IMG/VR virus record: IMGVR_UViG_3300022555_000017
Location: 64,001-127,545 of that record
Source of the DNA: a virus
Taxonomy: Duplodnaviria; Heunggongvirae; Uroviricota; Caudoviricetes
Reading direction: 5' to 3' (one strand)
Length of the DNA stretch: 63,545 bases
Shown one piece after another: positions 1,595 through 62,483 of the stretch (its first letter is position 1; every line of letters starts with the position of its first letter). The translations under genes were made by a program, and so were the position numbers. A model generated the notes under the pieces. The model was not told where the DNA came from. It searched no databases and worked only from the letters and a program-made list of their open reading frames with translations.

Positions 1595-4516
1595 TTATCT
1601 CATATCTTTCTTAACACGATACCATATTGTAAATGTAACATTATCAGGTTTAAATATTAAATCGCAATAAGTGTAAAATACTATATTATTATTTATATCA
1701 AACAGACCAATTTCATAAATGTTCATATCTCTATCATCATCGACATTTATTTCAAAATAGAAAAATTCATTATCACTCTTTCTTCTTACTATAGGATACT
1801 GCCCATATGATTTTTCCATACCATGATTACTTTCTGGATTCCATTTTCTACCAGATGTACCATATCCAACTTCAGCATAAGTCACATTATTAATAATACC
1901 TGTCATATCTGTTGGAGAAATACCTATCTTTCGTATAATAGCCGTTCCTGTTATTGAAGAGCCAAAAACAACAGTACATGAATTTGCATTATCAATAGTA
2001 AAAGTTTTTGGATAAACTATATAACCATCTTCATCATAAAACTGTGCTTGTATAGCATTAGCATTCAGTCCATGATATATATTCCATGTAGTTGAAGCAC
2101 TATCTCTTACATATCGTGACAAATCGGTATCAAATCTTGTTGCTGTATATGCAAAACCAGAATCGGAATATGCTAAATTTACTAAATATTCGGTTTGACT
2201 ATCAGCAACTATTGATAAGGGTAAGAACTTGAATCTATCAACATCATCTGTCTGAACAATATTCCATTTCTCAGCATCGCCATCAAAATTTAATCCATGT
2301 GTAACTGTCCATTGAATAGCATCAGATGCTTGTTCTAATGTAAATTCCGATACAGTTAAATAAGCAAATCCAGCAGTAGGTGTCGCAAATGTTATTTTAA
2401 TTCTGTTTGCATCAATATTCTCAATAGATTTAGGTTCAAACATAACTTGCCCTAAAGTAAAACATTGTGTAATAATATTAGTTGAATTTAAATCATGTTT
2501 TATAATCCATGCTAACGAATTTGAGAATGACGCATATACTAAGTTACCTTCTATACTACTCAATATAGGCTGATAACATTTAGAATACATTGCAGCTGCA
2601 TAGTTTCCTGTATATAGAGGTATATTTTTTCCTGTAAAGTCTGTAATAGGTGCAATCAATTCATAATAATGTGAAAATCTACTAACTGGCCTAAACTTTT
2701 CAAAGTTACTTATAAGAATAGTTATTAAATCTTCATTGATAATAAAATTTGTACCTAATGGCTCTCGGCTCAAATCCATTTCAACTTTATAATGAGGTGA
2801 TAAGCACAAACCGCCACTTACTTCTTTTGAATATGTGGGATACTCAATAATCTCAGTATTATCAAAAACTATAGCATTACCAGATGCTTCATAACTAAAT
2901 GTAATTAATAAACTATTTTTATCTAAGAATGTAATCTCATCTGGTACTTCAACCATATCATCAACTACAACTTGAACAATGGGATATTTTGTATTTAAAT
3001 CATGTTCAACAATCCAAGACGATGAGGCTGCTGAGGTCGAATATGTATATAATTGATTATCAATACCTATTACAGCTGAGCCATCAATAGGATTATCAAA
3101 ATAAACAGATAAATTATTTATATCATCAAAAATTATCCTATTAGGTACGATAGAATAATCAGTACTCGAAACTTGCGCCATAGGATATTTGACACCTAAA
3201 TTATGATTTATATGCCAAGTTGCTAAAGGTGTTCTCTGATCGAATTGATACCTATATGCGTTATTATCAGTTGTCATTGTAACTACTTTACCTGTTACAG
3301 CAGTATCAAAAGTTGCGACTAAATTATTTGAATCTGTAAAATATATCGAATCAGGTATAATAACCTGTTCATCATTATTTATAAACTGTGTAAAAATAAA
3401 CTGCTCATTATATCCGTGAGTTACTTTCCATTCGGTAGAAACATCTTCAAAATATGTTAAAGATACACCAGCATCATAATAATAACCAGCACCAGCGCCT
3501 AGTGATGGTGGCAATGTATTATAACTTGGATATGATATATATAAATAATCATCAAAATAATTCAGTGGGGAGCCAGAAACTTCCCAATCATGCCATCTTT
3601 CATAAATATTAAGATAATTTAATGTATTATAAGTTAAAATTTTCCATATAATAAACAAAGAAGTATAAGTTCCCTTTCTCTTTAAGAAGTCAGGCAACTT
3701 ACTCACATATTCTCTTTGTTCCTTTTCTGTAATTCGTTCTAATAAATTAACATCATACATATTAGAAATATAATATAGATAATCAAAATCAACTTCTGCT
3801 GGATCGGATAATGTCCATATATTCTTTAATAAGTTATAGTTCTTACTGAAAACCCTATCAAAATATAGCTCTAAAAATCTAGCCATTAACATATTATACA
3901 CATCATACTTATAACCATTTGCTGTGTCTATTACCACTTTGGACTTATCACTACCTCTATTATTATAAGGCAAGGCATTAACGACAAAATCCTTAAAAGT
4001 ATCTATAATAATATCAATTCTATTAGTTGCTGATATATATAACTTGCCAATATAATAGTATAACTTATTTGTATTTAAGTAATCAGTATAATCTGTATTG
4101 CTATCAATATAATCATTAAACTGGCGGTCTTTCTTAAAATAAACTTCACAACCATTATTGTCTATCAAATCTTCAATAGTTAGTTCGCAAAATCTATATG
4201 CATCACTCTCGTAGTTGAAACTAAATATATTACCTATTGGTGTTCCACTTATAGGTGTTGCTTTTATTCTATAATATGTTCCTTCCACTTTAACATACAA
4301 CTCAACACCAAAACCATATTTTGCAATGATGCCCGACTTAGCACCTCTAAGTGAAACAGAAGAAGGATAATGATAGTTATGAGGTACTATTCTATTTCTT
4401 ATTATAGTTGATGGTATATTAGTATCTAAACTAGTAAGATTTTTATGTATATCATTATCTTCATCTGTAAAATAGTTACTTAATATAAAATAAGGTGTAT
4501 CAGAAAATTTTGCCAT
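1595..4516 (-). CDS. Baseplate wedge protein, gp7/P2 gpI-like, with six ~55-aa W-x3-H-(G/N/D)-L repeats
   Basis: Contains DPAEVDFDYLYYI...KRKGTYTSL (tail protein I type) and C-terminal IYEIGLFD...KP; lies directly after the gp6 paralogs; six repeats are visible in two blocks of three. Confidence 0.65.
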   Translation of the reverse strand: MAKFSDTPYFILSNYFTDEDNDIHKNLTSLDTNIPSTIIRNRIVPHNYHYPSSVSLRGAKSGIIAKYGFGVELYVKVEGTYYRIKATPISGTPIGNIFSFNYESDAYRFCELTIEDLIDNNGCEVYFKKDRQFNDYIDSNTDYTDYLNTNKLYYYIGKLYISATNRIDIIIDTFKDFVVNALPYNNRGSDKSKVVIDTANGYKYDVYNMLMARFLELYFDRVFSKNYNLLKNIWTLSDPAEVDFDYLYYISNMYDVNLLERITEKEQREYVSKLPDFLKRKGTYTSLFIIWKILTYNTLNYLNIYERWHDWEVSGSPLNYFDDYLYISYPSYNTLPPSLGAGAGYYYDAGVSLTYFEDVSTEWKVTHGYNEQFIFTQFINNDEQVIIPDSIYFTDSNNLVATFDTAVTGKVVTMTTDNNAYRYQFDQRTPLATWHINHNLGVKYPMAQVSSTDYSIVPNRIIFDDINNLSVYFDNPIDGSAVIGIDNQLYTYSTSAASSSWIVEHDLNTKYPIVQVVVDDMVEVPDEITFLDKNSLLITFSYEASGNAIVFDNTEIIEYPTYSKEVSGGLCLSPHYKVEMDLSREPLGTNFIINEDLITILISNFEKFRPVSRFSHYYELIAPITDFTGKNIPLYTGNYAAAMYSKCYQPILSSIEGNLVYASFSNSLAWIIKHDLNSTNIITQCFTLGQVMFEPKSIENIDANRIKITFATPTAGFAYLTVSEFTLEQASDAIQWTVTHGLNFDGDAEKWNIVQTDDVDRFKFLPLSIVADSQTEYLVNLAYSDSGFAYTATRFDTDLSRYVRDSASTTWNIYHGLNANAIQAQFYDEDGYIVYPKTFTIDNANSCTVVFGSSITGTAIIRKIGISPTDMTGIINNVTYAEVGYGTSGRKWNPESNHGMEKSYGQYPIVRRKSDNEFFYFEINVDDDRDMNIYEIGLFDINNNIVFYTYCDLIFKPDNVTFTIWYRVKKDMR

Positions 4517-7272
4517 TATCCTTCCTCTGTAAATGTGCAGTTATCTATTAGAACTTGCGGAAATTGATTATTACCCAACTCTATATCTCTAAGTTTATTA
4601 TATCCATTATGAGTTATCTTATCTACAGTATATTTAGGAAAACCAATAAAGTTTCTTAAAACCATACCAAAACAATCACCTGCCTGAACATCAGTCACAC
4701 CGTAATCTATGATTTTTACGGGATCAAATATATCATCATTACTATTATTACCTAGTTGCCCGTAAGCATTCCAACCCCATGACCAAACAGCACCTTCAGT
4801 ATCAAGGCCAAAAAAACTAACACTATTACTACAAACTGCAACATTTGTAAAACTAACATCCATAACTGTTGCAACCGGACTTAATGTTGGTGGAGCCATA
4901 ATATCAATATCCATACCCCAAGTATATACATTATCTTCCGATATACCAATAGAACATCCCAATCCGCAAGCTACATCCTTAAAACTTAAAGTTGATAGAA
5001 CAGCAACTGGACTTGAACGACTATTTGTAGTACCATCGCCTAACTGACCTTTATCATTATAACCCCACGCCCAAAGTGAACCATCTGAACTACGAATACC
5101 TATAATATGATCCATGCCAACAGATATTTTACTGAATTGTATTCCGCCTAAAATCAAAGATGGTATTGAAGTATCAATATTTGTAAAATTAGCTAGCTGA
5201 CCATAATTATTAGCACCCCATGCCCAAACTTCTCCATTATTATCAAGTCCATATGAAGATGTATAACCAGCTATGACCTGAACCAAACTTGCACTACATG
5301 ATACTAATACAGGGCTTGAACAACTATTACCACTTGTATTATTTCCAAACTGTCCATATGTATTATCACCCCACGCCCATAGCGAACTATCTGAACCATT
5401 AATACCTAAACTATGCATACCGCCAACAGAAATATCACTAAAACTAATATTACCTTTTACAAAAACAGGACTTATTCTATCAATTACAGTACCATCTCCT
5501 AATTGGCCAAACATATTGTTACCCCAAGCCCATGCTGTACCATCCTCTTTTAAACCGATGGAATATACACCGAATGTTGATATTTTAGAAAAATTATCGG
5601 TATCAGCTAACAATACTGGTATAGACCTATCAGCCCAGTTTATATCATTATTGCCTAACTGCTTAGTATTATTCATACCCCATGCCCAAACAGCACCAGT
5701 AGTATTAGGTTCATATATAATATTTGCATTTACATCTCTAAACATTATATACTGAACTCCTTTTATATATGTAAAGTTATCAGTAGGCGAAACTTTACTT
5801 GTATCCATTAAATAGTCTATTATATCTGTCAACTTAATTGTTTCATTAAAACTTCTATTAACATAGTTAAAATAGTATTCTAACTTATTCTTCACTGCTT
5901 CTTCTACTAAAGCAAAAGAATATGTACGTTTAGGCTTTATACCAATATCAAAAGAAAAATATACAAGATCAGGTACTTCATATTGTTCATAGATACATAT
6001 AACCTTTCTAGGTTCAAGATACTTAGCTAAATCCGTTTTATATTCATCAGCATATAAGGTTGGAGTCAAAGAGCCATCAGCATTTGTAGTCTTATTAATC
6101 GTAGTAGTTCCCCATGTATCAGGTATAACAGAAATATAAACTTTATTATACTCTAAAATTGAGCCAGATGGTGTCACACTTTGCTGGCCCCATGCATTTG
6201 CAGCAATAACATTATCCTTCTCTTCAAGAAACTTTACATAATCATAAGATGTGACATCTCTAAACTGGTCATACATACTGCCAACAGAGTTTATTTTAAT
6301 ATCAGCAATACTTTCAGGACTTAGGCCACCTGTTGCGGAACTATGAGTAGTAATAACATAATTAGCATTATTTCCAGAGCCAGTTTCAAGATATGAAGTT
6401 TTTGTAGTGTTATAAATAAAATTAATAGGTAACTTAGTTACCACATTATTAGATACATTACCATTTTCACCCAAAGATTCTAATAAAGTTATAGAAATTG
6501 TACTATATGTTTCAGGTAAATTATTAGAACTTGAAAACTCTACAACATAGTTTTGATACTTATTATACTTGAACATATAAATATTATCTCTGATACTTAA
6601 ACCAGATATAGTATCATAGAAATTTTCAACTCTTGCCCAAGTTACGTCATCTACTTTTACTTCCATACAAGGATATACATTAGTTAAGTCATCATCATAG
6701 TCAAACTGTAAATAAGGTAAGTATATTTTATTGTCTATCAAATCAATACCTGTAAACGTATATGTATGAACTTTACCTTGCCTTACTGGAACAGAAAAAC
6801 TAAAAGGTACGGCTGTAACTTGTACTGTAGTTGTTTCAATAGTAGAAAATCGTATATTATTACCTTCAGAATCTTTAACATTCAAACCAGTATCGGGATT
6901 ACATTCTATTTCAACCCAAGCAGGAATGGTAAGTGCATCATATAAACTAATCCCTGTTGATGCGCCAAGAGTAAATGTTAAATAAGTACTTGAAGATATA
7001 TAACCTTTTGGATTATAACCCCTAAGTCTTGATAACATATGTGTTGTTTCATATATATCAGATGAACTAAGATATTGGTTTTTTGCAACTTTATTAATAT
7101 GATACATTGTAAGCATATTAATATAAGAAACCAGTTCACTTAAAATTGTTATATTGTTTCCTTCTATGTTATAATCCTTATATATTGGATTAGAACTCAA
7201 TAAATCAAACAATCTCGTTCTCATTGTTTTATAATCAATATTTAAATAATCAGGTACTAATGTATTTGACAT
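4516..7272 (-). CDS. gp6: Baseplate wedge subunit gp6-like (paralog A) with ~7 inserted RCC1 repeats
   Basis: gp6-type N-terminus (DYNIEGNNITILSELVSY...LSRLRGYNPK) and RDVTSYDY motif, followed by W-x-WG-x-N-x2-GQLG repeats from ~5700 to ~4660. Confidence 0.88.
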   Translation of the reverse strand: MSNTLVPDYLNIDYKTMRTRLFDLLSSNPIYKDYNIEGNNITILSELVSYINMLTMYHINKVAKNQYLSSSDIYETTHMLSRLRGYNPKGYISSSTYLTFTLGASTGISLYDALTIPAWVEIECNPDTGLNVKDSEGNNIRFSTIETTTVQVTAVPFSFSVPVRQGKVHTYTFTGIDLIDNKIYLPYLQFDYDDDLTNVYPCMEVKVDDVTWARVENFYDTISGLSIRDNIYMFKYNKYQNYVVEFSSSNNLPETYSTISITLLESLGENGNVSNNVVTKLPINFIYNTTKTSYLETGSGNNANYVITTHSSATGGLSPESIADIKINSVGSMYDQFRDVTSYDYVKFLEEKDNVIAANAWGQQSVTPSGSILEYNKVYISVIPDTWGTTTINKTTNADGSLTPTLYADEYKTDLAKYLEPRKVICIYEQYEVPDLVYFSFDIGIKPKRTYSFALVEEAVKNKLEYYFNYVNRSFNETIKLTDIIDYLMDTSKVSPTDNFTYIKGVQYIMFRDVNANIIYEPNTTGAVWAWGMNNTKQLGNNDINWADRSIPVLLADTDNFSKISTFGVYSIGLKEDGTAWAWGNNMFGQLGDGTVIDRISPVFVKGNISFSDISVGGMHSLGINGSDSSLWAWGDNTYGQFGNNTSGNSCSSPVLVSCSASLVQVIAGYTSSYGLDNNGEVWAWGANNYGQLANFTNIDTSIPSLILGGIQFSKISVGMDHIIGIRSSDGSLWAWGYNDKGQLGDGTTNSRSSPVAVLSTLSFKDVACGLGCSIGISEDNVYTWGMDIDIMAPPTLSPVATVMDVSFTNVAVCSNSVSFFGLDTEGAVWSWGWNAYGQLGNNSNDDIFDPVKIIDYGVTDVQAGDCFGMVLRNFIGFPKYTVDKITHNGYNKLRDIELGNNQFPQVLIDNCTFTEEG

Positions 7273-7293
7273 AGTTATCTTATTTCCTCTATA

Positions 7294-10218
7294 TTATTCT
7301 TCTTCTATAAATGTGCAATAATCAATTAAAATATTTGGAAACTGACTTTTATCTAAAGCTATATCTCTAAGCTTGTTGTTTCCGGTATAAGTAGATTCAT
7401 TAACAGTATATTTGGGAAACTCGGTTACGGTATCCTTTAGAGCTGCTACAAAATTAAATCCTATAGTAAGATTATTAACACCAGTAAAACCAGCTATACC
7501 TACCGGACTTTGATATGATATAATACTATTATTACCTAACTGGCCATTTGTATTATTACCCCATGCCCACAAAGAAGTATCAGAACCCCGAATACCCATT
7601 GTTGTATAAAAGTTATTCATTTTTATATCCTTAAAACTTATACCACCTTGAACAGAAACAGGGCTTGAATAATTCGTAGCATTACCAGTACCTAAGTTGC
7701 CTTGAGGATTATAGCCCCATGACCAAGCAGAGCCATCTAAACCATTTATAGCAAAACAACTTGCACCATCAGTTATAAACTTTGTATAACTACGATTTCC
7801 TATTACTGAAACAGGATTTGATTGACTGCCTATAGTCCCATTACCTAACTGGCCATAATTATTAGCACCCCAAGTCCATAAATTCCCTGTTTCATTTTCA
7901 ATACCGCCAATAGAATTCAACTGACTAAATTGTATTCCTCCAGCTACAGAAATAGGGCTTGAATAGTTATCAGTAGTATTATTTCCTAACTGGCCAAATG
8001 TATTATCGCCCCATGCCCAAGCAGTTAAAGTGAGAAGATTCAAACCATATACATAGTTATTATCTACAACTATCTGCTTATAACTTATGCCGCCAAGAAC
8101 TGAAACTGGCCTTGATTTATCTATTGTTGTGCCATCACCTAATTGCCCATAAGTATTCAATCCCCATGACCATGCTTGATTACTCTTAGACAAACCAATA
8201 ACAAAATTATTACCATTAATATATAATTTTTTATATTTATTACCGCCAAGAACTGAGGTAGGACTTGACCTATCATTATAATCACCAACACCTAATTGTC
8301 CATTTGTATTATATCCCCACGCCCAAGCAGTATCATCAGACATACGAATGCCTATGGCAGTTTTACCATCACAAAAAATATCACTAAAAATAATATTCCC
8401 TATGACAGAAACAGGGCTTACTTTGTTAGTAATAGTCCCATCACCTAGCTGCCCTTTATCATTTTGGCCCCATGACCATAATGTACCATCTTCTTTTAAT
8501 CCATAAATGGAATTACTGTTTGATACAATCTTTGTAAAGCTCAAATTATTATGTATAACAACTGGCGAATGAACTTCTGCCCAATTAGAATCATTATTAC
8601 CTAACTGCCCATATGTATTATCACCCCAAGTCCAAGCCATATTATTTGAATCAGGCTCAGATATTGTAACACTATCTATATCTATATCTCTAACTAAAAG
8701 ATATTGTATTCCCTTTACATTAGAAAATGTTTCAGTTAAAGATATATTATTTGTATTCAATATATACTCAATTATATCAGTAATCTTTATCGTTTCTTGA
8801 AAACTACGATTATACTTTGAAAAATAATAATTCAACTTACTTTTAACATCAGCCTCAACTAAACTGAAAGAATATGATGGCTTTACCTTTATGCCTATTT
8901 TGATTATAAAATTTAATATATCAGGTAAAACATAAGTATCATATGTTGAAATTATTTTTCTTGTTGCTAAATATTCTGTTAGTTTTCTCTTGTAATCTTC
9001 TGAATATATAATAGGTATAACTTCATGACCTGATTCATCTTGTGAAATACTTATAGTTCCTGTACCCCATTCATCAGGTATAACAGTAATAAAAATTTTG
9101 TTATAATCTCCAGTATTACCTAATGGCGATTCTTCCATCTCACCCCAAACACTTGCAGCAACAACATCAGTTCTTTGCTCAAGATGCTTAATATAATCAA
9201 TAGAAGTAACATTTCTAAACTGTGAATGAAATGTGCCACTTGAATTATCTTTCATATCCTTTATAAGTTCAGGGTCAACACCACCAGTTGCGGCGGTATG
9301 GGTAATAGTTACATAATCAGAATCAATAGTATTGCCATTAGTAAGATATGCTAATGTTGTTATATTATAAATAAACTCCGTATTTACAGGATTTATTATA
9401 GTATTTTCTTCAACATTTCCTTTCTTACCATATGATTCTAATACCTTTACAATAATTTTATCTGTGGGTTTAGGAACACCACTTGATACTAAAAATTCAA
9501 TAGAATATGTTTGATACTTGTCAAACTTAAACATATAAATATTACTTTCATTTAATAGACCTGTAACTTCATTATAAAAATTATTCACTCTAACCCAAAT
9601 ATCATTTCCAACTTGAACTTCAATAGATGGCAGATCATCATTCAAATCATTATCATAATCAAAGTTTAATGAAGGTAAATATAACTTATTATCTGATAGG
9701 TCTAATCCTGTATAGCTATATGTTTTAACTTCACCTTGCTTTACTGGAACTTGAAATGCGAATGGAAAAGAATCTTCTGTAATTGAAACAGTTGTAGTAG
9801 TTGTAGTGGTAAACTTTACTAGGTTCCCATCTTCGTTTTTCTCTGTAGATTCAATTTCTGTCCAAGCAGGAATAGTAAGTGTATCATATACAACTGCACC
9901 CGCTGATGGCCCAACACTTATTGTTAATGTTGTATTAGAAGATACATAACCTTTTGGCTCATATCCTTTAAGACTTGATAACATATGTGTTGTTTCATAT
10001 ATATCAGACGTATCAATATAATGATTTTTTACAACCTTATTAATATAAAAAGATGATATAGAACCAGCATATGAAACTAGTTCATCCAAAATAGCTAAAT
10101 TATTACCATCTTTCAAATAATCCTTAAACACCATATCATTACTAAGAACATTTAAAAAATCACTTTTAATTATATCAAAAGTCTTATCAAAATATTCAGG
10201 TACTAAATCATTTGACAT
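7294..10218 (-). CDS. gp6: Baseplate wedge subunit gp6-like (paralog B) with ~8 inserted RCC1 repeats
   Basis: Colinear homolog of 4516..7272 (YETTHMLS, RNVTSIDY, FPKYTV...NKLRDI); eight WxWGxNxxG(Q/N)LG motifs from ~8645 to ~7430. Confidence 0.88.
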   Translation of the reverse strand: MSNDLVPEYFDKTFDIIKSDFLNVLSNDMVFKDYLKDGNNLAILDELVSYAGSISSFYINKVVKNHYIDTSDIYETTHMLSSLKGYEPKGYVSSNTTLTISVGPSAGAVVYDTLTIPAWTEIESTEKNEDGNLVKFTTTTTTTVSITEDSFPFAFQVPVKQGEVKTYSYTGLDLSDNKLYLPSLNFDYDNDLNDDLPSIEVQVGNDIWVRVNNFYNEVTGLLNESNIYMFKFDKYQTYSIEFLVSSGVPKPTDKIIVKVLESYGKKGNVEENTIINPVNTEFIYNITTLAYLTNGNTIDSDYVTITHTAATGGVDPELIKDMKDNSSGTFHSQFRNVTSIDYIKHLEQRTDVVAASVWGEMEESPLGNTGDYNKIFITVIPDEWGTGTISISQDESGHEVIPIIYSEDYKRKLTEYLATRKIISTYDTYVLPDILNFIIKIGIKVKPSYSFSLVEADVKSKLNYYFSKYNRSFQETIKITDIIEYILNTNNISLTETFSNVKGIQYLLVRDIDIDSVTISEPDSNNMAWTWGDNTYGQLGNNDSNWAEVHSPVVIHNNLSFTKIVSNSNSIYGLKEDGTLWSWGQNDKGQLGDGTITNKVSPVSVIGNIIFSDIFCDGKTAIGIRMSDDTAWAWGYNTNGQLGVGDYNDRSSPTSVLGGNKYKKLYINGNNFVIGLSKSNQAWSWGLNTYGQLGDGTTIDKSRPVSVLGGISYKQIVVDNNYVYGLNLLTLTAWAWGDNTFGQLGNNTTDNYSSPISVAGGIQFSQLNSIGGIENETGNLWTWGANNYGQLGNGTIGSQSNPVSVIGNRSYTKFITDGASCFAINGLDGSAWSWGYNPQGNLGTGNATNYSSPVSVQGGISFKDIKMNNFYTTMGIRGSDTSLWAWGNNTNGQLGNNSIISYQSPVGIAGFTGVNNLTIGFNFVAALKDTVTEFPKYTVNESTYTGNNKLRDIALDKSQFPNILIDYCTFIEEE

Positions 10219-10221
10219 ATA

Positions 10222-10617
10222 TTATCCTCTTTTAAGAATTGTGGTAACAGAATATATATTACTGGAACTTATAGAACCTACGATAGAAAAATTAACGGTT
10301 ACTTCATATTGGTTATTATCATAATTTGATTGAACATTCAAATTTTCTATTTTAATTCTTTTTTCCCATGTTTGAATTGATGATAAAAATTCAGAACCAA
10401 TTCTTCTAGCTGTTATATCGTCCATTGGCTCAAATAATAACTTATAAAAATTACTACCAAACTCAGGTAACATTCTTCTGCTACCCATCATTGTTGTCAT
10501 TATATTTTTTAATGAGTTTCTAATGGAATCTATATCAGTATTTAACTCAACATCACCATCGTTTTGTCTGAATAGATCGCCATTAAAATCTGAATACATA
10601 TAATCTTTAGTTGCCAT
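10222..10617 (-). CDS. gp25: Baseplate wedge subunit gp25
   Basis: SIRNSLKNIMTT-x2-G-x-R-x3-PEFGS-x5-LFEP and WEKRI motifs of the GPW/gp25 family. Confidence 0.93.
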   Translation of the reverse strand: MATKDYMYSDFNGDLFRQNDGDVELNTDIDSIRNSLKNIMTTMMGSRRMLPEFGSNFYKLLFEPMDDITARRIGSEFLSSIQTWEKRIKIENLNVQSNYDNNQYEVTVNFSIVGSISSSNIYSVTTILKRG

Positions 10618-14728: not shown

Positions 14729-16816
14729 TTAGCTATTAATCAATGCAAAAGGCATTGGCATTGAAATAGGTATATCATGCTGTGGTTGAGAACTTTCATC
14801 TATAGTTGTAGATGCTTGTAAAACTGCATTACTTGTATTTATATTATTATTTGTATTTTCCGAAACCATTTTTCCAAACTCATCTACACTCTTTTTATCC
14901 TTTTCATTTTCAACTTTAGCCTTTTCATCTTCAGCTTTAATAATATTATTTGATGACTCCTTTATCGGAGAATTTAGCATTTCATTTTTTGTTACTGCTA
15001 AACCACCGACACTAATATCAGCCGTTTGTAAAGTCTGTGATAATTTATTTGATATATTGTTTGCTGATGGTAATATTGATTGAGTACTAGCAGGTGTAGA
15101 TGTAGATGCTGACTTTCCTATTGATGATGTACTAGCAGATGCAGATGTAGATGCTGACTTTCCTATTGATGATGTACTAGCAGGTGTAGATGTAGATGCT
15201 GACTTTCCTATTGATGATGTACTAGCAGGTGTAGATGTAGATGCCGTAAATCCCCTAGATGCTCCGCCACCACCAGACATCCCACTACCTACTACTGGTG
15301 CAGTTACTGTACCGGATACTTTAGCTTTTTGTTCATCCTTAACTTTTTGCTCATCTTGCTGTTTTTTTGTTGGTAAGCCAAACCATCCCCTAGCCCAATC
15401 AGGAATAAATCCAATCATTTTTTCAAAAAGCCAATTAAAACCATCACCTATCATATTACTAAGACCTGTAAATGGCTTCATCCAATTTATATTAGTAGCC
15501 CAGTTAGTTAAATCCATCCAGCTTTCAGAAACCATTTGTCCAAACATCATCATAGCTGTAGCGACATCTTTAGTACTCACCATTCCAAATGTAATACCAC
15601 TAATAGCACCAGCAATAGCACTACCAATTTTTGATAATATACCATCACCACCAAAAATATTATTTACTTCTTTATCATTCCATCCACTAAAAGCCTTATA
15701 AAGTATAAAACCTAAATATAGAAATGCTAAAACAGTAGGATTTTTCATAAGACTAAAAATAAGTTTTATTCCAGAACCTAACATACTAAAAATAGGGCCT
15801 ATTAAACCACCTATAAATGAAAATAGTCCAGAACTCATACCTTTTAATTTACTCAAAAGACCTTTCTTTTCGCCACCTTCTCTTTCATCTGCTAATTTAT
15901 TTACTTTTACATATGCTAAAAATGCCGTAGCAATACTCTTTATCTTTCCCGCTAAATTATCTTTTGTTTTTTCTATATCAATTGTTGGTTCTATAGTTTT
16001 TGCACTCCACCAACCTTGCTGTCCAGAAATATTAGGAAGTAAACTTTTTGTTGCTCCGCCACTTAAATGATCATATAAATCCTTAAATATTTCAGTTTCA
16101 ATATTAACTGCTTTTGTTGTTGCAGATTCTTCTATTTTAGGTTCTTTTAATTTGTCTCTTTTAAACATACTACCAAAAGTTCTAAATCCATTCCATAATG
16201 ATTTGAATGAACTTTTAGCTAAAGTATAAATTTTCATTATTTCAGGGCCCATTAAATTTTCAAATTCTGATTGTATTATAGTTTTAGCATCATTAAAAGC
16301 ATCTTTAAAAGATTCTACAGCTTCACCTTCTTTATCTGCAAATTTTTTCCACATATTAGACCATACACTATTTTGTTTAATTGTAATATCTTTTATACTA
16401 GAAGATAGTCCCCTTTTAGTTTTATCTGTAATATATTTTTTCCATCCGCCACTTGCAGAATCGGCAATAGTTTTATTATAGCCAGTTAAATAATTTCCAA
16501 TAACTTTTGCTGTTTTTAATGTATGTTCATTTATACTTTTAGAAATTGTATCTTTCCTAAATAATGAAAATATTTTAGAACCAAAACTTCTAAAAGTACC
16601 AATATATGATTTTTCTATATAATCATTTGTTTGCTTTCCAACATCTTCACCAATTTTATCATCAGTCTTTTTAACAGCATCGGCTAATGATTGATTAAAA
16701 TGTTTAGCAAGAGAATCAACACCTCTTTCAATACTATTTAATACTTTAGTCTGATCACCTAAATGCTTATTAATTCTTTTACTTATATCAGCTACATTAG
16801 AAAATTCATCTGCCAT
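14729..16816 (-). CDS. Tape-measure or hub-like protein (paralog 2) with Ser/Thr-rich repeat
   Basis: Long helical amphipathic Gly/Phe/Leu region; shares an E-x2-LMGP segment with 16829..19315; located in the tail module. Confidence 0.6.
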   Translation of the reverse strand: MADEFSNVADISKRINKHLGDQTKVLNSIERGVDSLAKHFNQSLADAVKKTDDKIGEDVGKQTNDYIEKSYIGTFRSFGSKIFSLFRKDTISKSINEHTLKTAKVIGNYLTGYNKTIADSASGGWKKYITDKTKRGLSSSIKDITIKQNSVWSNMWKKFADKEGEAVESFKDAFNDAKTIIQSEFENLMGPEIMKIYTLAKSSFKSLWNGFRTFGSMFKRDKLKEPKIEESATTKAVNIETEIFKDLYDHLSGGATKSLLPNISGQQGWWSAKTIEPTIDIEKTKDNLAGKIKSIATAFLAYVKVNKLADEREGGEKKGLLSKLKGMSSGLFSFIGGLIGPIFSMLGSGIKLIFSLMKNPTVLAFLYLGFILYKAFSGWNDKEVNNIFGGDGILSKIGSAIAGAISGITFGMVSTKDVATAMMMFGQMVSESWMDLTNWATNINWMKPFTGLSNMIGDGFNWLFEKMIGFIPDWARGWFGLPTKKQQDEQKVKDEQKAKVSGTVTAPVVGSGMSGGGGASRGFTASTSTPASTSSIGKSASTSTPASTSSIGKSASTSASASTSSIGKSASTSTPASTQSILPSANNISNKLSQTLQTADISVGGLAVTKNEMLNSPIKESSNNIIKAEDEKAKVENEKDKKSVDEFGKMVSENTNNNINTSNAVLQASTTIDESSQPQHDIPISMPMPFALINS
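15084..15244. repeat. 45-nt tandem repeat, ~3.6 copies, encoding ASTSTPASTSSIGKS
   Basis: Unit gtactagcaggtgtagatgtagatgctgactttcctattgatgat starts at 15084, 15129, 15174 and 15219; the second copy has two substitutions. Confidence 0.95.
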
Positions 16817-16828
16817 ATCTCTATCCTA

Positions 16829-19315
16829 TTAAACTCTATTATTAATCCCTATCATTTGTCCGCCACCTAATTTATTATCAGACTTAGGTATATTATCTTG
16901 TGGTTTTGATACTTTTGTAGTATTAGAAGCAACTTGTGAATAAGCGTTTGTTTTTACCAATGGTGTTGCCACCTTTGCCATAGCTTTATTTTTATCATCT
17001 TTCTTTTGTTGTTCTGTTTTTGTTACATCACCTTCAGCAGAATAAACTCTCGAAGCCCCACTGCCGCCAGATTTCCCACCTTCACCAATAGCCGATACTG
17101 AAGCTGACGTTCCCTGACCTTTTGAAATTTCTTGAACATCTTTATTTTGAGAATACAATTCAGCTTTAGTTAAATCATCTTTACCTTTACCACTACTTAA
17201 TGATAATGAACCATTTACAGTTTTTTGCATTATAGCATTTTGTGTTTCCAAATCTGCTGAATTTACATCAACACCTAATTTTTTAGCAGCTCTTTTTCTT
17301 CCTTCCGCCAAAAACCAAGCAACAACTTTTGCAGCAACAACAGGATCATCATTAACTAAATCTGGATTATCTATTAAAGCATTACCCATACCAATAGCTT
17401 TACTAGCTTTAGCATAATTAGCTTTACCAGTTAATTGTATATATCCACGACCTCTATATTTATAAGCATCCCCTTCAGTTGTATTACCTAGTTCTTTACC
17501 TTTAGATGAGCCTGTACCATATAAAAGTTCAGCAAGTTGTCTAGGGTCTTTTCTAATAGAATCCAATTGAGCATCCGAATAACCACTAAGTTTTGTACCA
17601 AAAGTTTTCCTTAATCCTTGAACTGAATAATTAAGATTTTCTTCTTGCCTTTTCCCTTTAGATTCTTTCATTACCTGGCCAAGACTTGCAGCAACAGCTT
17701 CATCATTTAAACCCTGAGCTTTTAATTCTTTTGCTATCTGAGATAAATTTTGTTTTGTATTCTGCCCACTTAAACCTACAGCAGTTCCGGCAGCCATACC
17801 ACCTCTAAAAATTGCAGTACCTGTACTTATCACAGCATTACCAACATTTTTTCCAACATTTTCTCCAACAGTTCCTTTAGTAGATTGTGTAACAAATTTA
17901 CCAAACCGATCTAACGATGATGATGCTTTAACAGCAGACCACTTAAAAATTTTAGAGATAACATCTAAAATACTAAAATTTCTTAATTCCTCTAAAAATC
18001 CTTCCCATGCATTACTTAAACCCGTTTTTATTATACCTATTGGATCACTTATTAAATTAGAAAAAAATGTTGATATAGTTGTAAAAACATTCTTAATCTG
18101 TTTACCTGTTTCTACTAACCAATCAATAGCTTTTGTAACCGGCTTAAAAAAATCTGTCATTGATTTCCAACAATCCGACATAATTTTTAATGTTTCACTA
18201 ATTATATTATGTGTACCAAGCCATTGTTTAAGTTTAGAATTATCCCATATTGAAATCATGTTTTTAAACAACATAAATACAGCAACACCACCACCAATAA
18301 CTAAAAGTGGTATTATCATTTTTTTCATATATCCTAAAATAAAAACATTCACACCCTTAAAAAATCCTAACATATTAGACCAAAATTGTTTTTTAAATAC
18401 ATTTCCAATTCTTGCTTTCCATAATATACCAACTGCTAAAGAATCCTTTATAACTGTTCCAACCATACCAGCAGCTTTTACAGCAGATTCATATGCTTTA
18501 ACTTTTAAATTTTTCTTTTTTTCTTTTGGACTTTCTTCCTGTTCATCTACATCCGATCCTTCTCTATTATTCTCTTTTTTAATAACTGAAACTATCTTTT
18601 TTACTACAGATTTTCTTCCTTTTATCGGCTCAGCAGTTTCTTTATCTCTATCATCAAGATTATCATCCACATCTTGCTCATCTTTTGAAAATAAATACTT
18701 TATACCTCTACTAACTTTTTTTAAAATAGAAGCGCTAGTTATTATATAATCCCATAAAGGGCCCATAAGAAATTCTAATTTTTCCATAAAATAATTCCCA
18801 ATTTCTTTAAAGCCATTTGCAAAAAAATCGCCCATAGAAGTTGACGCAGTTTTCCAACCATCTTTAAAAAATACAAATGTTTTACTAATTGCACGAGTTA
18901 AAAAATTACTCTTTGTATGCTTCCATATTTTGGATAAAGCATTTTTTATAGACTCTGATACCTTTTTGGTATTTGTTAATTTTAACCCTTTAAATGGTGA
19001 ACCGATGATATTAAAAAGTCTTTTAATTCCGTCTCCAAAATCAGTAAAAGATGTTTTAAATATATCTAATACATTTGTAAATATTGAAGATATTTCAGGA
19101 CTTTGTTTAGGAAAAGCTTTACCTAAAATATTTCTACGACTATCAATTTTTAAATCAATACCTTTAGCAGTATTCTTTATACCTTCATCAATATTTTCTA
19201 ATTGTTCTGTTACTATACTATAATTTTCAGCAACAGAGCCGATATGACCTTGTTTAATCTTCTTAGTATGTGAAGCTCTTATTAACTTTTGAAATTTCTG
19301 TTCTTTTGTACTCAT
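16829..19315 (-). CDS. Tape-measure-like protein (paralog 1) with C-terminal glycoside hydrolase family 19 (lysozyme/chitinase-like) domain
   Basis: EENLNYS...LGNTTEGDAYKYRGRGYIQLTGKANY...LIDNPDLV...AAKVVAWF is the phage GH19 signature; the N-terminal part is helical and amphipathic. Confidence 0.8.
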   Translation of the reverse strand: MSTKEQKFQKLIRASHTKKIKQGHIGSVAENYSIVTEQLENIDEGIKNTAKGIDLKIDSRRNILGKAFPKQSPEISSIFTNVLDIFKTSFTDFGDGIKRLFNIIGSPFKGLKLTNTKKVSESIKNALSKIWKHTKSNFLTRAISKTFVFFKDGWKTASTSMGDFFANGFKEIGNYFMEKLEFLMGPLWDYIITSASILKKVSRGIKYLFSKDEQDVDDNLDDRDKETAEPIKGRKSVVKKIVSVIKKENNREGSDVDEQEESPKEKKKNLKVKAYESAVKAAGMVGTVIKDSLAVGILWKARIGNVFKKQFWSNMLGFFKGVNVFILGYMKKMIIPLLVIGGGVAVFMLFKNMISIWDNSKLKQWLGTHNIISETLKIMSDCWKSMTDFFKPVTKAIDWLVETGKQIKNVFTTISTFFSNLISDPIGIIKTGLSNAWEGFLEELRNFSILDVISKIFKWSAVKASSSLDRFGKFVTQSTKGTVGENVGKNVGNAVISTGTAIFRGGMAAGTAVGLSGQNTKQNLSQIAKELKAQGLNDEAVAASLGQVMKESKGKRQEENLNYSVQGLRKTFGTKLSGYSDAQLDSIRKDPRQLAELLYGTGSSKGKELGNTTEGDAYKYRGRGYIQLTGKANYAKASKAIGMGNALIDNPDLVNDDPVVAAKVVAWFLAEGRKRAAKKLGVDVNSADLETQNAIMQKTVNGSLSLSSGKGKDDLTKAELYSQNKDVQEISKGQGTSASVSAIGEGGKSGGSGASRVYSAEGDVTKTEQQKKDDKNKAMAKVATPLVKTNAYSQVASNTTKVSKPQDNIPKSDNKLGGGQMIGINNRV

Positions 19316-20415: not shown

Positions 20416-21141
20416 TTATAATCCACCGGCTATACCTATACCAGCTTTACGAATTGTTTCTCTAACAGCACCTTGAGGTTGATCATATACATTAAAAAAT
20501 TGATATGAAAAGGTTACATCGACTGTTGATACCTCATTACTTCCATAATCTAATGAAACTTGCCCTATTGATTTTGGCCATGCATAATACAATTTATATA
20601 CTGAAATAGTATTTCCTGTACTATTTAATAGATATGCTTCTTGATTTACCATAAGTGAACTAGGTTTTGATTGCATATTTGATATAGGATCACGCATCAT
20701 TTTCTGCCAATCATGAAACTTTTTAAGTATATAACCCTCAGAATCCAAATTAAATGTAACAGTCCAATCTTCATATGTTTTATTTCCTGGCACTTTAAAT
20801 GTATTTCCCATCCAAGTTGAAGTCATATCTTCAAATGATGAAGATGGTAAACTAGATGATTTTACATAGAATGGTATATCAGCCATTGACATTTTTTTAG
20901 ACATTGTACCTATTTGCATACCAGCAACATCTACTCCTGCTAATGCGCCCGCTTCAGCCCCTTTTATAATAGCATCTGTTGGATTTGTAAAAATACTTCC
21001 GCCGCCAGATAATCCAGCCTCTAAACCTGTTAATAATGCATTACCAACGCCTGGAAATTGAATATTCATCCAAAACAAATATTGTCTTGAAACATCAGTA
21101 AATTTACTCTTATAAGTATTAATATCTATTTGTATATTCAT
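20416..21141 (-). CDS. Tail-tube-fold protein (gp19/gp54-like paralog)
   Basis: SSLPSSSF...W-x-G-x5-PG-x2-TYEDWTVTF...AWPKSIGQVSLDYGS...VTFSYQ. Confidence 0.8.
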   Translation of the reverse strand: MNIQIDINTYKSKFTDVSRQYLFWMNIQFPGVGNALLTGLEAGLSGGGSIFTNPTDAIIKGAEAGALAGVDVAGMQIGTMSKKMSMADIPFYVKSSSLPSSSFEDMTSTWMGNTFKVPGNKTYEDWTVTFNLDSEGYILKKFHDWQKMMRDPISNMQSKPSSLMVNQEAYLLNSTGNTISVYKLYYAWPKSIGQVSLDYGSNEVSTVDVTFSYQFFNVYDQPQGAVRETIRKAGIGIAGGL

Positions 21142-21794
21142 TATATCAATCCTGTAATTTTTCCGACTACACTTTTAATAATTTGATCTTTAAATGACTT
21201 TGTTATGCTACTAGTCTTTATAGGTTCAAAATAAGAATAACTAAATGTAATTTGAACTGTTGCATGCTCATTTGAAGAATAATCTAAAGCAACTTCACCA
21301 ATTGATTTAGGCCATGCATTAATTAATGTATAGCCAACTACTGTATTACCTCGACCATCCAGCAAAAAGATTTGCTGATCCTCTACAATATCAGAAAATG
21401 TATTTCTATTAAACTCGCCATCTTGAATTAAATTATTCCATTCATAAAATTTAGTTAATATTTCAGCATCCCCATCAATATTAAATGTTACAACCCAATC
21501 ACTATATGTTTTAAATCCTGGCATTTTAAGAGTTATAAACTGTATTTCATGCGATCTTTCTTCAAATTCTACTGCTGGTATATTAGCAGACTTAACCAAA
21601 TATGGATATTTATCTCTTGCAGAACCAAATCCAAATGGTGTAAGTGCTGAACTTACAGATTTTATTATACCTGTTAAAGCTGAATCACTAGAAGAAATCT
21701 CTGACGGAAAACTAAATAAACAATAAAATAAATTAGCTTTTTGAGCTTCTACAAATCTAGTTTTATATGTTTCTATATCTAACTGTACATTCAT
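21141..21794 (-). CDS. Tail-tube-fold protein (gp19/gp54-like paralog)
   Basis: SANIPA...PGFKTYSDWVVTF...AWPKSIGEVALDYSS...ITFSYS. Confidence 0.8.
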   Translation of the reverse strand: MNVQLDIETYKTRFVEAQKANLFYCLFSFPSEISSSDSALTGIIKSVSSALTPFGFGSARDKYPYLVKSANIPAVEFEERSHEIQFITLKMPGFKTYSDWVVTFNIDGDAEILTKFYEWNNLIQDGEFNRNTFSDIVEDQQIFLLDGRGNTVVGYTLINAWPKSIGEVALDYSSNEHATVQITFSYSYFEPIKTSSITKSFKDQIIKSVVGKITGLI

Positions 21795-21811
21795 TTTTTC
21801 TCCAAAATAAA

Positions 21812-21854
21812 AAAGTCCAAAAGGTATATTTTTTTAATATACCCTTTAGACTTT
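21812..21854 (-). terminator. Intrinsic terminator downstream of the tail tube gene
   Basis: 19-bp stem whose two mismatches both become G-U wobbles in the minus-strand RNA, followed by UUUUUUAUUUU. Confidence 0.8.
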
Positions 21855-21933
21855 AAATCCGTTGAGTTAAGTATCTCAAGTGGGTAACAACATATATTTA
21901 TGTTATTCTATGTAAACTGTCAATCTCTATTTA

Positions 21934-22467
21934 TTAAAATGTAACTCCTATCTCATATGAAGTCTTATCAATAACATGATAAATATATGAAAATGTAACC
22001 TGAACCTGTGCAACTTCACTTGCTGAATAATCTAAATCAATAGTGCCAATAGACTTAGGCCATGCGCCAACTAATTTATATTTTATAGTTGTATTACCTT
22101 CATGGTCAAGTAGTTCTAATACCTGATCTGCCATATAAGTGCTTGGTTTATTAGCCTTATTACTTGTTGGATCATGAATTAATCTAGCCCAATCATGAAG
22201 CGATTTAATAACATCAGATTCAGCATCAACATTAAATGTAACTGTAAAATCAGAATAAGTATATTTTCCAGCAAACTTGAAATCAAATCCTTGCCAATTT
22301 GTTGTTATTTCTTCGGTAGTAGTTTCAGGTAAAGTAGTTGTTCTTACAAGATAAGTAAGTTTATCAACATTTGTAGTAATAGGAAAATTAGGCTTATAAT
22401 AAAACAAATATTGTTTTGCTCCACCTTGAAATGACGCTCTATATGAATCTATGTTAAAATTAGGCAT
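21934..22467 (-). CDS. gp19: Tail tube protein gp19
   Basis: TTLPE...WQG...AGKYTYSDFTVTF...GAWPKSIGTIDLDYS...VTFSY; 177 aa, directly downstream of the sheath gene. Confidence 0.9.
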   Translation of the reverse strand: MPNFNIDSYRASFQGGAKQYLFYYKPNFPITTNVDKLTYLVRTTTLPETTTEEITTNWQGFDFKFAGKYTYSDFTVTFNVDAESDVIKSLHDWARLIHDPTSNKANKPSTYMADQVLELLDHEGNTTIKYKLVGAWPKSIGTIDLDYSASEVAQVQVTFSYIYHVIDKTSYEIGVTF

Positions 22468-59468: not shown

Positions 59469-62400
59469 TTATAAATCTGGTAATATTTTTACAGGTGACA
59501 TATAATTTTTTGGTGTATATTGAAATGTCAAACAATAATTAGCATTATTACCCCATGCCCATATTGAACCATCTAAACCATTTAAACCGGAAGAATAGTC
59601 CCTACCTGCATATATCTTTGTAAAACTCATACCACCAAGAACTGACGTTGGACTTGAATATGATGTTGTATTTCCAGTTCCTAATTGACCTGAACTATTA
59701 TTACCCCATGCCCACGCAGTACCATCTGAACCTCTAATACCCAAAGAATGGCCACTACCAGCAGCTAATTGTGCCCAACTTATACCACCCTTAACAGATG
59801 TAGGTATTGAAGTATCATAATATGACCCACTAAAAAATCCTGAAGAATATGATGTTAATGTTCCAACATTACCTAATTGCCCATAACTATTGCTACCCCA
59901 TGACCATGCTATACCATTAGAACCACTAATACCTAAAGAATGATAGCCCCCAGCTACTATCTGTTTCCAACTTATACTACCAGTAATAGAAACAGGGCTT
60001 GATACTGAAAGCATTGAGCGATCCGAATCAATTCCCAACTGTCCTAATGTATTATAACCCCATGCCCAACCTGTTCCATCCGAACCTCTAATACCTAATG
60101 TATGATCAGTGCCAAGAACTGTTTCTTTCCAACTTATACCACCAACAACAGAAACAGGACTTGAATATGAAGTTCTTGTATTATTTCCCAAATTTCCCAA
60201 CGAATTATCACCCCATGCCCATGCTGTACCATCTGAACCACGAAGCCCTATACTAGTATCATCATTAGAAGAAACTTGTTTAAAACTTATTCCTCCAAGA
60301 ACAGAAACAGGACTTGAATATGATATTATATTTCCATGACCTAATTGGCCAATATTGTTTCCACCCCATGCCCATGCTGAACCGTCCGAGCCTCTAATAC
60401 CCAAAGAATGGTTAAAATATGGATATGTTCCCGCAACTCTAAGATCGGCACCAATAGCAATCTGCTTCCAACTTATATTTCCTAAAATTAATGTTGGATA
60501 ATATTTACTAGTTATTGTACCATCACCTAACTGTCCAACATTATTAGTTCCCCACATCCATGCTGAACCATCCAAGCCACGAATGCCGCCAATATAATTA
60601 CTAGCACCAAACATATCAGAAAAACTTATAATAGTTGTTACTAAAACCGGACTTGACTGATTTACATATAATGTCATATTATTTTTTTGTGTAGTTTGCT
60701 TATATGTATTATCTCCCCACAACCAAACTTTATTATCATAATATCCTATACCACCAATATTATTATACCCAACTTTCAAATCAGAGAAACTAACACTTCG
60801 TATTATTAAAGTAGGTGATAAACAATTTGTTAAATTACCAGTTCCTAACTGACCATTTGAATTAAGACCCCATGCATAACCAGTATTATTTAAACCATTT
60901 ATTCCTACCGAAGAATAAAAAAATGTATCAATTTGTTTGAAACTTATACCACCTACAACAGAAACAGGGCTTGAATATTGTGTTGTATTATTAGTTCCTA
61001 ACTGCCCATACCCATTATAACCCCATGCCCATGCTGATCCATCTAAACCACGGATACCTAAAGAATAAAAATTACCAGCAGATAATTGCGTAAAACTTAT
61101 ACCACCTACAACTGAAACAGGACTTGAATAACTTGTAGTATTATTAGTTCCTAATTGCCCATTATCATTACCACCCCATGTCCAAGCAGAGCCATCCAAT
61201 CCCTTAATTCCTAGAGAATGATTATAACCAGCCGATATTTGTATAAAACTAATATTACCATGAACTGAAACTGGGCTAGAATATGATGTTGCATTACCCA
61301 TACCTAATTGTCCAATACTATTAATACCCCATGCCCACGCAGTACCATCTAAACCATTAATGCCTAGAGAATGATACATACTAGTTGATAATTGCGACCA
61401 ACTTATATTACTAGCAACTAGAGTTGGACTTGAATATGCTGCACTATCACCTATTCCTAAATAACCTTGACTTCCATATCCCCAGCCAAATCCTATTCCA
61501 TCAGAACCACGAATACCTAAAGTATGAGAAGAATAAGTAGTAATAGAAGAAAAAATAATACCGCCCAAAACTAAAACTGGTGTTGTTTGATTAGTTATTG
61601 TACCATCACCCAACTGTCCGTAATCATTTTGGCCCCATGACCATAATTTACCAAAAGTATCTCTATAAAATACTGTACTATATCCAAGTTCTAAGAAATC
61701 CGTATAATCATTTACATATTCCTGTATATTAATAACTGATGCTTGAGAACCACCAAATAGTCTTGCTGTTGTACCATTTATATTTGTATTTGTACCTACC
61801 TGCTCTCCTATTCTAACTTTAAATGTAATAGTGTTTAATGATCTATTATTATAAACATACATTAAATGAGTCTGTTCCAAACCAGACGCTGAATACTTAT
61901 TTCCTTGCCCTGAACACAATGCATATAAATCGGAATCTTTATATAATGCAGCATTTGTGGAATTTGATGTACCTGAATTAGACACATTCAAATATACTTC
62001 TATCAATAATTTACTATTAGTACTTTTAGGTGTATATATTTTTGTTAAAACTTCAAGTCCCATAGTATTTGTAGGTATATCAACTGTAGTTAAAGCAACA
62101 CTTGTATTCGTATATACTATTGTATTACCACTTTGATGATTAACTAATAGACCAGATGTGCCAGAAGAGCCAGAAGTACCTGAGCTACCTGATGTTTTTG
62201 AACTACCTGATGTACCAGACGATCCAGAAGTACCTGAACTACCTGATGTTCCAGAAGAACCAGCAGAACCAGATGTGCCAGAAGAGCCAGAAGATCTTGA
62301 TAAACCAGACGATCCAGAAGTACCTGAACTACCTGATGTTCCAGAAGAACCTCCACTTGTGCCTGAAATCTTTGAAGAACCAGATGTTCCTGAACTACCC

Positions 62401-62483
62401 GATGTTCCTGAACTACCCGATGTTCCTGAAGTTCCAGAAGAACCAGATGTACCATATAAACCTATTTCTACCCATTCTGCCAT
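59469..62483 (-). CDS. Fibre-like protein: Gly-Ser/Thr collagen-like stalk, beta-sandwich linker and 14 RCC1 repeats
   Basis: GTSGSSGTSG runs over ~100 aa; fourteen W-x-WG-x-(N/G) motifs counted. Confidence 0.8.
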   Translation of the reverse strand: MAEWVEIGLYGTSGSSGTSGTSGSSGTSGSSGTSGSSKISGTSGGSSGTSGSSGTSGSSGLSRSSGSSGTSGSAGSSGTSGSSGTSGSSGTSGSSKTSGSSGTSGSSGTSGLLVNHQSGNTIVYTNTSVALTTVDIPTNTMGLEVLTKIYTPKSTNSKLLIEVYLNVSNSGTSNSTNAALYKDSDLYALCSGQGNKYSASGLEQTHLMYVYNNRSLNTITFKVRIGEQVGTNTNINGTTARLFGGSQASVINIQEYVNDYTDFLELGYSTVFYRDTFGKLWSWGQNDYGQLGDGTITNQTTPVLVLGGIIFSSITTYSSHTLGIRGSDGIGFGWGYGSQGYLGIGDSAAYSSPTLVASNISWSQLSTSMYHSLGINGLDGTAWAWGINSIGQLGMGNATSYSSPVSVHGNISFIQISAGYNHSLGIKGLDGSAWTWGGNDNGQLGTNNTTSYSSPVSVVGGISFTQLSAGNFYSLGIRGLDGSAWAWGYNGYGQLGTNNTTQYSSPVSVVGGISFKQIDTFFYSSVGINGLNNTGYAWGLNSNGQLGTGNLTNCLSPTLIIRSVSFSDLKVGYNNIGGIGYYDNKVWLWGDNTYKQTTQKNNMTLYVNQSSPVLVTTIISFSDMFGASNYIGGIRGLDGSAWMWGTNNVGQLGDGTITSKYYPTLILGNISWKQIAIGADLRVAGTYPYFNHSLGIRGSDGSAWAWGGNNIGQLGHGNIISYSSPVSVLGGISFKQVSSNDDTSIGLRGSDGTAWAWGDNSLGNLGNNTRTSYSSPVSVVGGISWKETVLGTDHTLGIRGSDGTGWAWGYNTLGQLGIDSDRSMLSVSSPVSITGSISWKQIVAGGYHSLGISGSNGIAWSWGSNSYGQLGNVGTLTSYSSGFFSGSYYDTSIPTSVKGGISWAQLAAGSGHSLGIRGSDGTAWAWGNNSSGQLGTGNTTSYSSPTSVLGGMSFTKIYAGRDYSSGLNGLDGSIWAWGNNANYCLTFQYTPKNYMSPVKILPDL
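62150..62455. repeat. Degenerate 9-nt-period repeat encoding G-T-S / G-S-S triplets
   Basis: Repeated cctgaactacctgatgtt / ccagaagaaccagatgt type units; Gly at every third residue in the minus-strand frame. Confidence 0.9.

Follow-up and report, generated by a model that had tools for sequence, protein, structure and literature searches.

The window analysed here is a stretch of 63,545 nucleotides (positions 64,001 to 127,545 of IMG/VR record IMGVR_UViG_3300022555_000017) that makes up the latter half of a linear virus contig of 127.5 kb, whose completeness is estimated at 57%. Portal, terminase and major head genes in the genome mark it as a phage, and the T4-like head and tail genes of the window lie on the minus strand. 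In a sequencing-run search the runs that matched the window best were freshwater and lake metagenomes, and no RNA holder was found among the best-matching runs listed. The subject of this report is a pair of adjacent genes at 4516-10218, here named gp6A and gp6B, which encode two homologs of the T4 baseplate wedge protein gp6, each with an array of RCC1 repeats inserted at the same loop. The labels are arbitrary and bear no relation to the A and B positions of T4. Relatives with no insert at this loop are referred to as empty-loop relatives. The pair and its parts are located as follows (positions in the window).

7294..10218, minus strand: gp6B, T4 gp6-like baseplate wedge paralog of 974 amino acids (aa), transcribed ahead of gp6A (PHROG 219, family profile).
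8644..10218, minus strand: gp6B core, residues 1-525, which starts with the N-terminal helices and includes most of the C-terminal dimerization domain (PHROG 219; hhalign of the family to T4 gp6).
7429..8643, minus strand: gp6B insert, residues 526-930, eight RCC1 repeats predicted to form one propeller, probably eight-bladed (repeat listing, model with 32 strands).
7294..7428, minus strand: gp6B C-terminal tail, residues 931-974, completing the gp6 domain (matches the tail of empty-loop relatives).
4516..7272, minus strand: gp6A, second gp6-like paralog, 918 aa, its stop codon overlapping the start of the gp7-like gene (PHROG 219, family profile, Foldseek).
5698..7272, minus strand: gp6A core, residues 1-525 (PHROG 219, homolog matches, Foldseek).
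4645..5697, minus strand: gp6A insert, residues 526-876, seven RCC1 repeats of which repeat 6 is degenerate, predicted propeller fold (Z 25.7 to the RPGR RCC1-like domain over residues 520-876).
4516..4644, minus strand: gp6A conserved C-terminal tail, residues 877-918 (tail of empty-loop relatives; model).

Both genes are intact open reading frames with gp6 cores, as the original prediction had read them from the letters, and PHROG, hhalign and Foldseek comparisons agreed on this assignment. Both proteins matched the PHROG 219 baseplate wedge family (E 2e-37 and 2e-33), and the family profile matched gp6 of T4 and of Klebsiella phage KP1 (E 6e-17 and 3e-19). Alignment of the family to T4 gp6 by hhalign gave a probability of 99.9 (E 3.6e-36) over 435 columns covering T4 residues ~24-471, and a Foldseek search with the gp6A model ranked KP1 and T4 gp6 top (E 2e-26). 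Beyond T4 residue 471 the profile alignment was not significant, and tail-to-tail comparison gave E > 0.09. The two proteins are 43% identical end to end, ~49% over the cores and 63% over the tails (~42 aa). The tail motif described earlier as shared is present in both, with the correction that the spacer after FPKYTV is six residues long and not five.

The inserts were matched by Pfam RCC1 (PF00415) at E ~1e-57, far above the cut-off, with repeats of ~51 aa that number exactly seven in gp6A and eight in gp6B, as had been counted at first reading. In empty-loop relatives, some 190 proteins with a length of ~566 aa, the tail (Y/F-P-x-Y) follows directly after the RD(I/V)..EPN segment; because these relatives join the EPN segment straight to the tail, the array is an internal insertion rather than a terminal fusion, which had also been claimed, and in the gp6A model the tail refolds beyond the array (residues 881-918, pLDDT, the predicted local distance difference test score, of 79-91). 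For modelling, gp6A was folded with gp6 alignment rows only and gp6B was folded as its C-terminal part; joint alignments of gp6 homologs and RCC1 fragments were misaligned, and the gp6B tail, with almost no alignment depth, lies outside the model. The full gp6A model had a mean pLDDT of 71.5, with the C-terminal domain confident on either side of the insert. In the gp6B C-terminal model (mean pLDDT 89.5) all eight repeats are well ordered, mostly at 93-98 and the first at 86-96, and the 32 strands are arranged as two strands, seven full blades and two strands. This model aligned to solved seven-bladed RCC1-family propellers over 352 residues (Z 35.9, root-mean-square deviation 4.0 Å) and to the model of a 411-aa phage RCC1 protein over 397 residues at 3.0 Å, and its ring is likely to close with eight blades. 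The expectation that the arrays form beta-propellers is thus upheld by predicted models, which have four-stranded blades and match UVR8, HERC2 and RPGR over the entire insert. Since the first strand of the array is strand three of a blade and its last is strand two, both ends of the modelled propeller would lie side by side, which would suit insertion into a loop and allow the gp6 tail to return to its domain. Besides their number of repeats, the propellers differ in charge (isoelectric point 4.05 vs 4.98), and the arrays resemble domains of annotated phage tail fibres. A search for longer fused forms found none, which is weak evidence; a junction search in viral contigs likewise found none, and leads from ESM Atlas features were all under 0.8.

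A hidden Markov model of the family, applied to all fetched loci, detected a pair of full gp6 genes in the window, its near twin L004 and the relative L003 and nowhere else; the remaining ~120 family loci, a redundant set that includes some short ones, hold one gp6 each. A tree of 71 core sequences places gp6A and gp6B together in a single clade (100/98) that is surrounded by single-copy empty-loop proteins. Repeat 1 of gp6A and repeat 1 of gp6B are reciprocal best matches with the same unusual length of 52 aa, the two versions of repeat 2 are 57% identical, and the DNA of the genes is collinear from the start codon to nucleotide (nt) 1928, while the later repeats do not pair. Because the paralogs form one clade and have repeats 1-2 in common, a single insertion followed by duplication and then by repeat turnover is strongly supported by these comparisons as the simplest order of events. 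Independent insertions into two copies were considered and are unlikely in view of the same junction, the matching repeats 1-2 and the collinear DNA. The pair recurs beyond this contig: sequence clusters hold 10 and 12 protein variants of the two genes on contigs of up to 197 kb, gene order around the pair is identical in other assemblies, overlapping contigs from two other lake samples span the whole pair, and a relative at 87-93% identity retains both genes.

The genome's own RCC1 pool is the likely source of the inserts, because several gp6 repeats are closest to its fibre-like RCC1 proteins. Repeat B2 of gp6B matches one far-end fibre-like RCC1 protein at 65% and B7 matches two others at 63%, and further RCC1 genes lie past the contig end in a 197-kb assembly. 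A fibre-like protein at the far end of the window ranks high among the matches of the gp6B array and is a probable donor or exchange partner:

59469..62483, minus strand: fibre-like protein containing 14 RCC1 repeats of the insert subtype and a Ser/Gly/Thr stalk (repeat comparison, Pfam).

An RCC1 array at window 62503-63543, with at least seven repeats, is near-identical to L176:9349-9981, where the gene has only 210 aa in the 197-kb assembly; since the two assemblies disagree, the repeat count of this contig-end array is unreliable.

Multiple gp6 hits at four further loci (L022, L024, L029 and L036) were rejected as duplications, each being a single gene split by TGA codons. The gp6 frame is open only with TGA read-through at L022:10001-11809, L024:1981-3654, L029:1134-2813, L036:9998-11734 and L171:1639-3348. 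Most of these TGA codons align with conserved Trp columns, so part of the phage family seems to use TGA for Trp.

The wider family comprises well over a hundred homologs of ~555-600 aa (core identity 37-52%), and in 191 of 211 measurable unique sequences fewer than 50 residues separate the RD motif from the QFP motif, which is the empty-loop state. At the same loop a Kelch propeller is found in P0158, a single-copy relative in gp25-gp6-gp7 context, an FG-GAP propeller in the single-copy relative P0148, a ~170-aa module without a Pfam match in P0077, and Gly-rich modules in P0156, P0161, P0178 and P0195. Because relatives carry Kelch, FG-GAP and other inserts at this site, the loop counts as a hotspot for insertions, of which RCC1 arrays are one kind. 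The four non-RCC1 inserts that were placed in the tree sit on branches other than that of gp6A and gp6B, so the insertions were independent. Decoration also reaches the neighbouring wedge protein, as at L073:12131-16282 (same as L159), where a gp7-like chain continues through a Ser-rich linker into a C-terminal array of seven RCC1 repeats. Wedge-protein decoration is recurrent in uncultured phages, and the duplication is the peculiar part.

A second insertion-tolerant site of this gp6 family was noted in P0153, P0148, P0145 and P0159 near core residue ~395-430. The phage contig L174:1-10392 encodes three large RCC1 proteins, the first of which, judged by eye, looks as if it starts with a P2 gpI-type wedge motif.

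Selection on the pair was estimated against L003 (dS 0.4-0.8) as the ratio of nonsynonymous to synonymous substitution rates (dN/dS). In gp6B the ratio was 0.086 over the core, 0.15 over the insert and 0.04 over the tail; in gp6A it was 0.086, a value that covers the N-terminal 162 codons only. Because dN/dS is low in each, both genes are maintained under purifying selection. Population variant sites fall inside the insert in six of seven cases for gp6A and in eight of 14 for gp6B. At window 8461-8587, within gp6B repeats 1-2, two alleles that differ at 11 of 127 bases coexist in two lake samples, and the same substitution block recurs in the protein variants. Among 86 family-conserved columns gp6A has lost six and gp6B 12, three of these being the same; the median loss in single-copy relatives is 1-2, a comparison biased against the paralogs in that those relatives define the columns. 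Losses specific to gp6B are concentrated in the N-terminal helices and at the beginning of the C-terminal domain (418-447).

The pair is surrounded by a contractile tail module (gp25, gp5, gp53 and a gp7-like partner), which in transcription order reads gp53, a hub-like tail protein, gp5, a 219-aa gene without assignment, gp25, gp6B, gp6A and a 973-aa gene. Along gp25, gp6B, gp6A and the gp7-like gene the spacing is 3 nt, 21 nt and a stop-start overlap, and a ribosome-binding-like motif lies upstream of gp6A in the 21-nt spacer. The two genes that flank the pair are tightly coupled to it and are present in one copy each:

10222..10617, minus strand: gp25-like wedge/sheath-initiator gene, single copy, directly upstream of gp6B (Pfam GPW_gp25, E 5e-17).
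1595..4516, minus strand: gp7-like third wedge chain, single copy, directly downstream of gp6A, with a P2 gpI/Tri2-like segment at 3497-4024 (Tail_P2_I and 8kea matches).

No direct match was obtained for the 973-aa protein itself. Of its family, 31 of 64 members matched Tail_P2_I (best E 3e-8), and the family profile matched the solved phage wedge protein 8kea (E 4.6e-5) and, weakly, pyocin Tri2; the gene is assigned as a gp7-like chain because its family matches both P2 gpI and the solved wedge protein.

Further observations were made on this tail module and its relatives. The gp7-like family (window 1595-4516 and homologs) ranges from ~720 to 2500 aa with internally repeated modules and looks like a second insertion hotspot. 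At L167:11719-21571 three tandem gp7-like copies lie beside one gp6, a mirror image of the gp6 duplication. Three neighbouring tail-tube-like genes (gp19 family) lie at window 20416-22467, and the relative L002 likewise has three. The tape-measure position, window 14729-19315, is occupied by two long neighbouring genes of 695 and 828 aa, the latter of which has a GH19-like endolysin domain; in relatives this position carries an SLT domain (L002) or a VgrG3-like domain (L006). The metagenome-assembled genome labels of family contigs were mixed and were not taken as host evidence.

The 12 gp6 chains of T4 form a continuous ring: inside each wedge it is the N-terminal parts that pair, and from one wedge to the next the C-terminal parts (PMC3004832). 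The two wedge chains of phage 812 adopt conformations A and B with different partners, and dimerization domains link neighbouring wedges (PMC13433997). The gp6 region common to simple baseplates corresponds to T4 residues 340-489 (PMC10457771). By a weak alignment the insertion point falls at about T4 residue 486-490, where the extra ~170 residues of T4 gp6 start.

There is strong support for a history in which an ancestor with a single gp6 of ~566 aa received an RCC1 array, of a subtype abundant in the phage's fibre-like genes, in a surface loop late in the C-terminal domain, tandem duplication followed, and the later repeats then turned over (seven vs eight) while selection retained both copies. 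Each array would close as one beta-propeller, as modelled. Each paralog would take one of the two alternating ring positions, giving a 1:1:1 gp6A-gp6B-gp7 wedge from three coupled single-copy genes. That the paralogs hold fixed positions is quite probable on sequence grounds, because the two genes are under equal constraint, the operon supplies one gene for each chain, the cores are only 49% alike and the losses of conserved residues are largely separate. Because the insert-bearing C-terminal domain pairs between wedges, the propellers would meet at the inter-wedge junctions, each of the six displaying one 7-repeat and one 8-repeat propeller. The hetero-wedge of the original prediction is plausible in this light (both copies conserved, single gp7 and gp25, mostly separate site losses), while the pair of propellers, which had been put within each wedge, would be formed between wedges instead. 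A complex prediction with gp6A (1-400), gp6B (1-398) and the gp7-like segment scored 0.30 against a mark of 0.32 and was not used as evidence.

The propellers would be non-catalytic binding modules and, in the weakest step of the proposal, would serve as accessory adhesins for a fairly constant host-surface ligand, much like the evolved Dit or the Alg11 cage. This role is suggested by analogy with the carbohydrate-binding modules (CBMs) of Alg11, with Vp4 Gp119, with the evolved Dit and with the RCC1-like domains in annotated tail fibres. The full model, a hetero-wedge with propellers as accessory adhesins, is assigned a probability of roughly 0.55. A bolder form is doubtful: a strictly alternating two-paralog ring, evolved independently of the extracellular contractile injection systems (eCIS), would carry six pairs of host-binding propellers (7- plus 8-bladed) on its inter-wedge junctions, and since the opening of this ring triggers contraction, receptor binding could act on it without fibres.

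Several points weigh against the adhesin-bearing hetero-wedge. The location of the loop in the assembled baseplate is an extrapolation from T4, the alignment past residue 471 not being significant; the gp6A propeller (520-876) was modelled with moderate confidence; and no close relative is encoded by cultured phages, the best match having 26% identity. Homodimers or random mixing of the two chains may also be compatible with the data. The gp6B insert is without positive selection, unlike many receptor-binding domains, and its dN/dS of 0.15 argues against an arms race.

The same low insert dN/dS would suit an alternative in which the hetero-wedge is retained and the propellers have a structural purpose, offering docking sites to peripheral baseplate or fibre proteins without host contact, like the extra C-terminal region of T4 gp6. 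The weak alignment of the insertion point with the start of that region (T4 ~486-490) points the same way, as does the fact that solved RCC1 propellers are mostly protein-binding. Against this, most relatives assemble their baseplates with nothing in the loop, so that no partner docking there can be essential; the contents of the loop change freely between Kelch, FG-GAP and Gly-rich modules, and population variants are concentrated in the inserts, two alleles coexisting in lake samples. Docking is considered unlikely, although it is the most probable of the alternatives.

If instead the paralogs were interchangeable, rings would be random mosaics, and the duplicate would be retained for dosage (two gp6 per gp7) or for a wider ligand range. 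Two genes would yield the 2:1 ratio without specialisation, and most conserved residues of both interfaces are kept in both copies; yet the cores are only ~49% identical and the gp6B-specific losses cluster, whereas free mixing at two interfaces should hold the copies more alike. Random mixing is distinctly unlikely on this evidence. The difference between the propellers in repeat number and charge could also reflect alternative baseplates, with mainly one paralog per virion (for two hosts or receptors) or with one paralog outside the virion, but the genes are adjacent in a tightly coupled run with a 21-nt spacer and are under similar constraint, and this explanation is very improbable. An assembly artefact or a neutral recent duplication, which the differing assembly of RCC1 arrays elsewhere in the genome might suggest (346+ aa where the window ends, but 210 aa in L176), is refuted by copies ~66% identical in DNA that recur in many assemblies and by a diverged relative (dS 0.4-0.5) that keeps the pair at dN/dS 0.09.

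The hetero-wedge with propellers, if correct, would be a natural case of a homomeric two-position ring turned heteromer by duplication, with the unduplicated, empty-loop state persisting in ~190 related sequences and with eCIS wedges as the presumed end point of such a path. The gp6 loop has taken up folded domains of 150-450 residues several times and is a possible display site on contractile machines, and phage RCC1 propellers would gain a defined structural address, albeit in a rare, uncultured lineage. No phage with two gp6 paralogs, or with RCC1 inside gp6, was found described in the openly searchable literature; each ingredient has precedent, and the combination appears to be undescribed and confined to one small lineage.

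The closest solved counterparts are gp6 of T4 and of Klebsiella phage KP1 (PDB 5IV5, 5HX2, 9F4A), which form a (gp6)2-gp7 wedge and have in common with the present pair the core, the gp25 and gp7-like neighbours and the T4-like tail module. T4 fills both positions from one gene and has no propeller, with its own extra C-terminal region near the same point, whereas the present pair consists of separate genes that both carry an RCC1 insert. The inserts themselves have the repeat motif and fold of RCC1/BLIP-II propellers (UVR8, the HERC2 RLD, RPGR and BLIP-II; PMC9218822); RCC1 domains are described as seven-bladed, but gp6B has eight well-modelled repeats. Phage RCC1 proteins such as those of phAPEC6 are without established function (PMC7247149). 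Binding modules inserted in core baseplate proteins aid adsorption or bind cells in the evolved Dit of lactococcal siphophages (PMC10688798) and in the wedge protein Gp119 of Bacillus phage Vp4 (PMC11406892). Plain and insert-bearing forms exist there as they do here at one gp6 loop; in those systems CBM folds sit in Dit or in the third wedge protein, with no duplication, and here propellers sit in gp6. In eCIS wedges the two positions are filled by different gp6-like chains, Pvc11 and Pvc12 (PMC12546770) or Alg11 and Alg12 (PMC8894135), and Alg11 carries an inserted domain with two CBMs, proposed to serve in attachment (PMC8894135). Two different gp6-like genes in one cluster are likewise found here, and the gp6A/gp6B pair may, by analogy, work like an eCIS wedge. 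It is not itself one, because its gp7-like gene is unfused: eCIS wedges have gp7 fused to one of the chains, and a spike cage is formed by the insert of Alg11, which projects from a middle domain, whereas the phage pair has a separate gp7, a lineage-specific duplication and an RCC1 propeller in the C-terminal domain of both chains.

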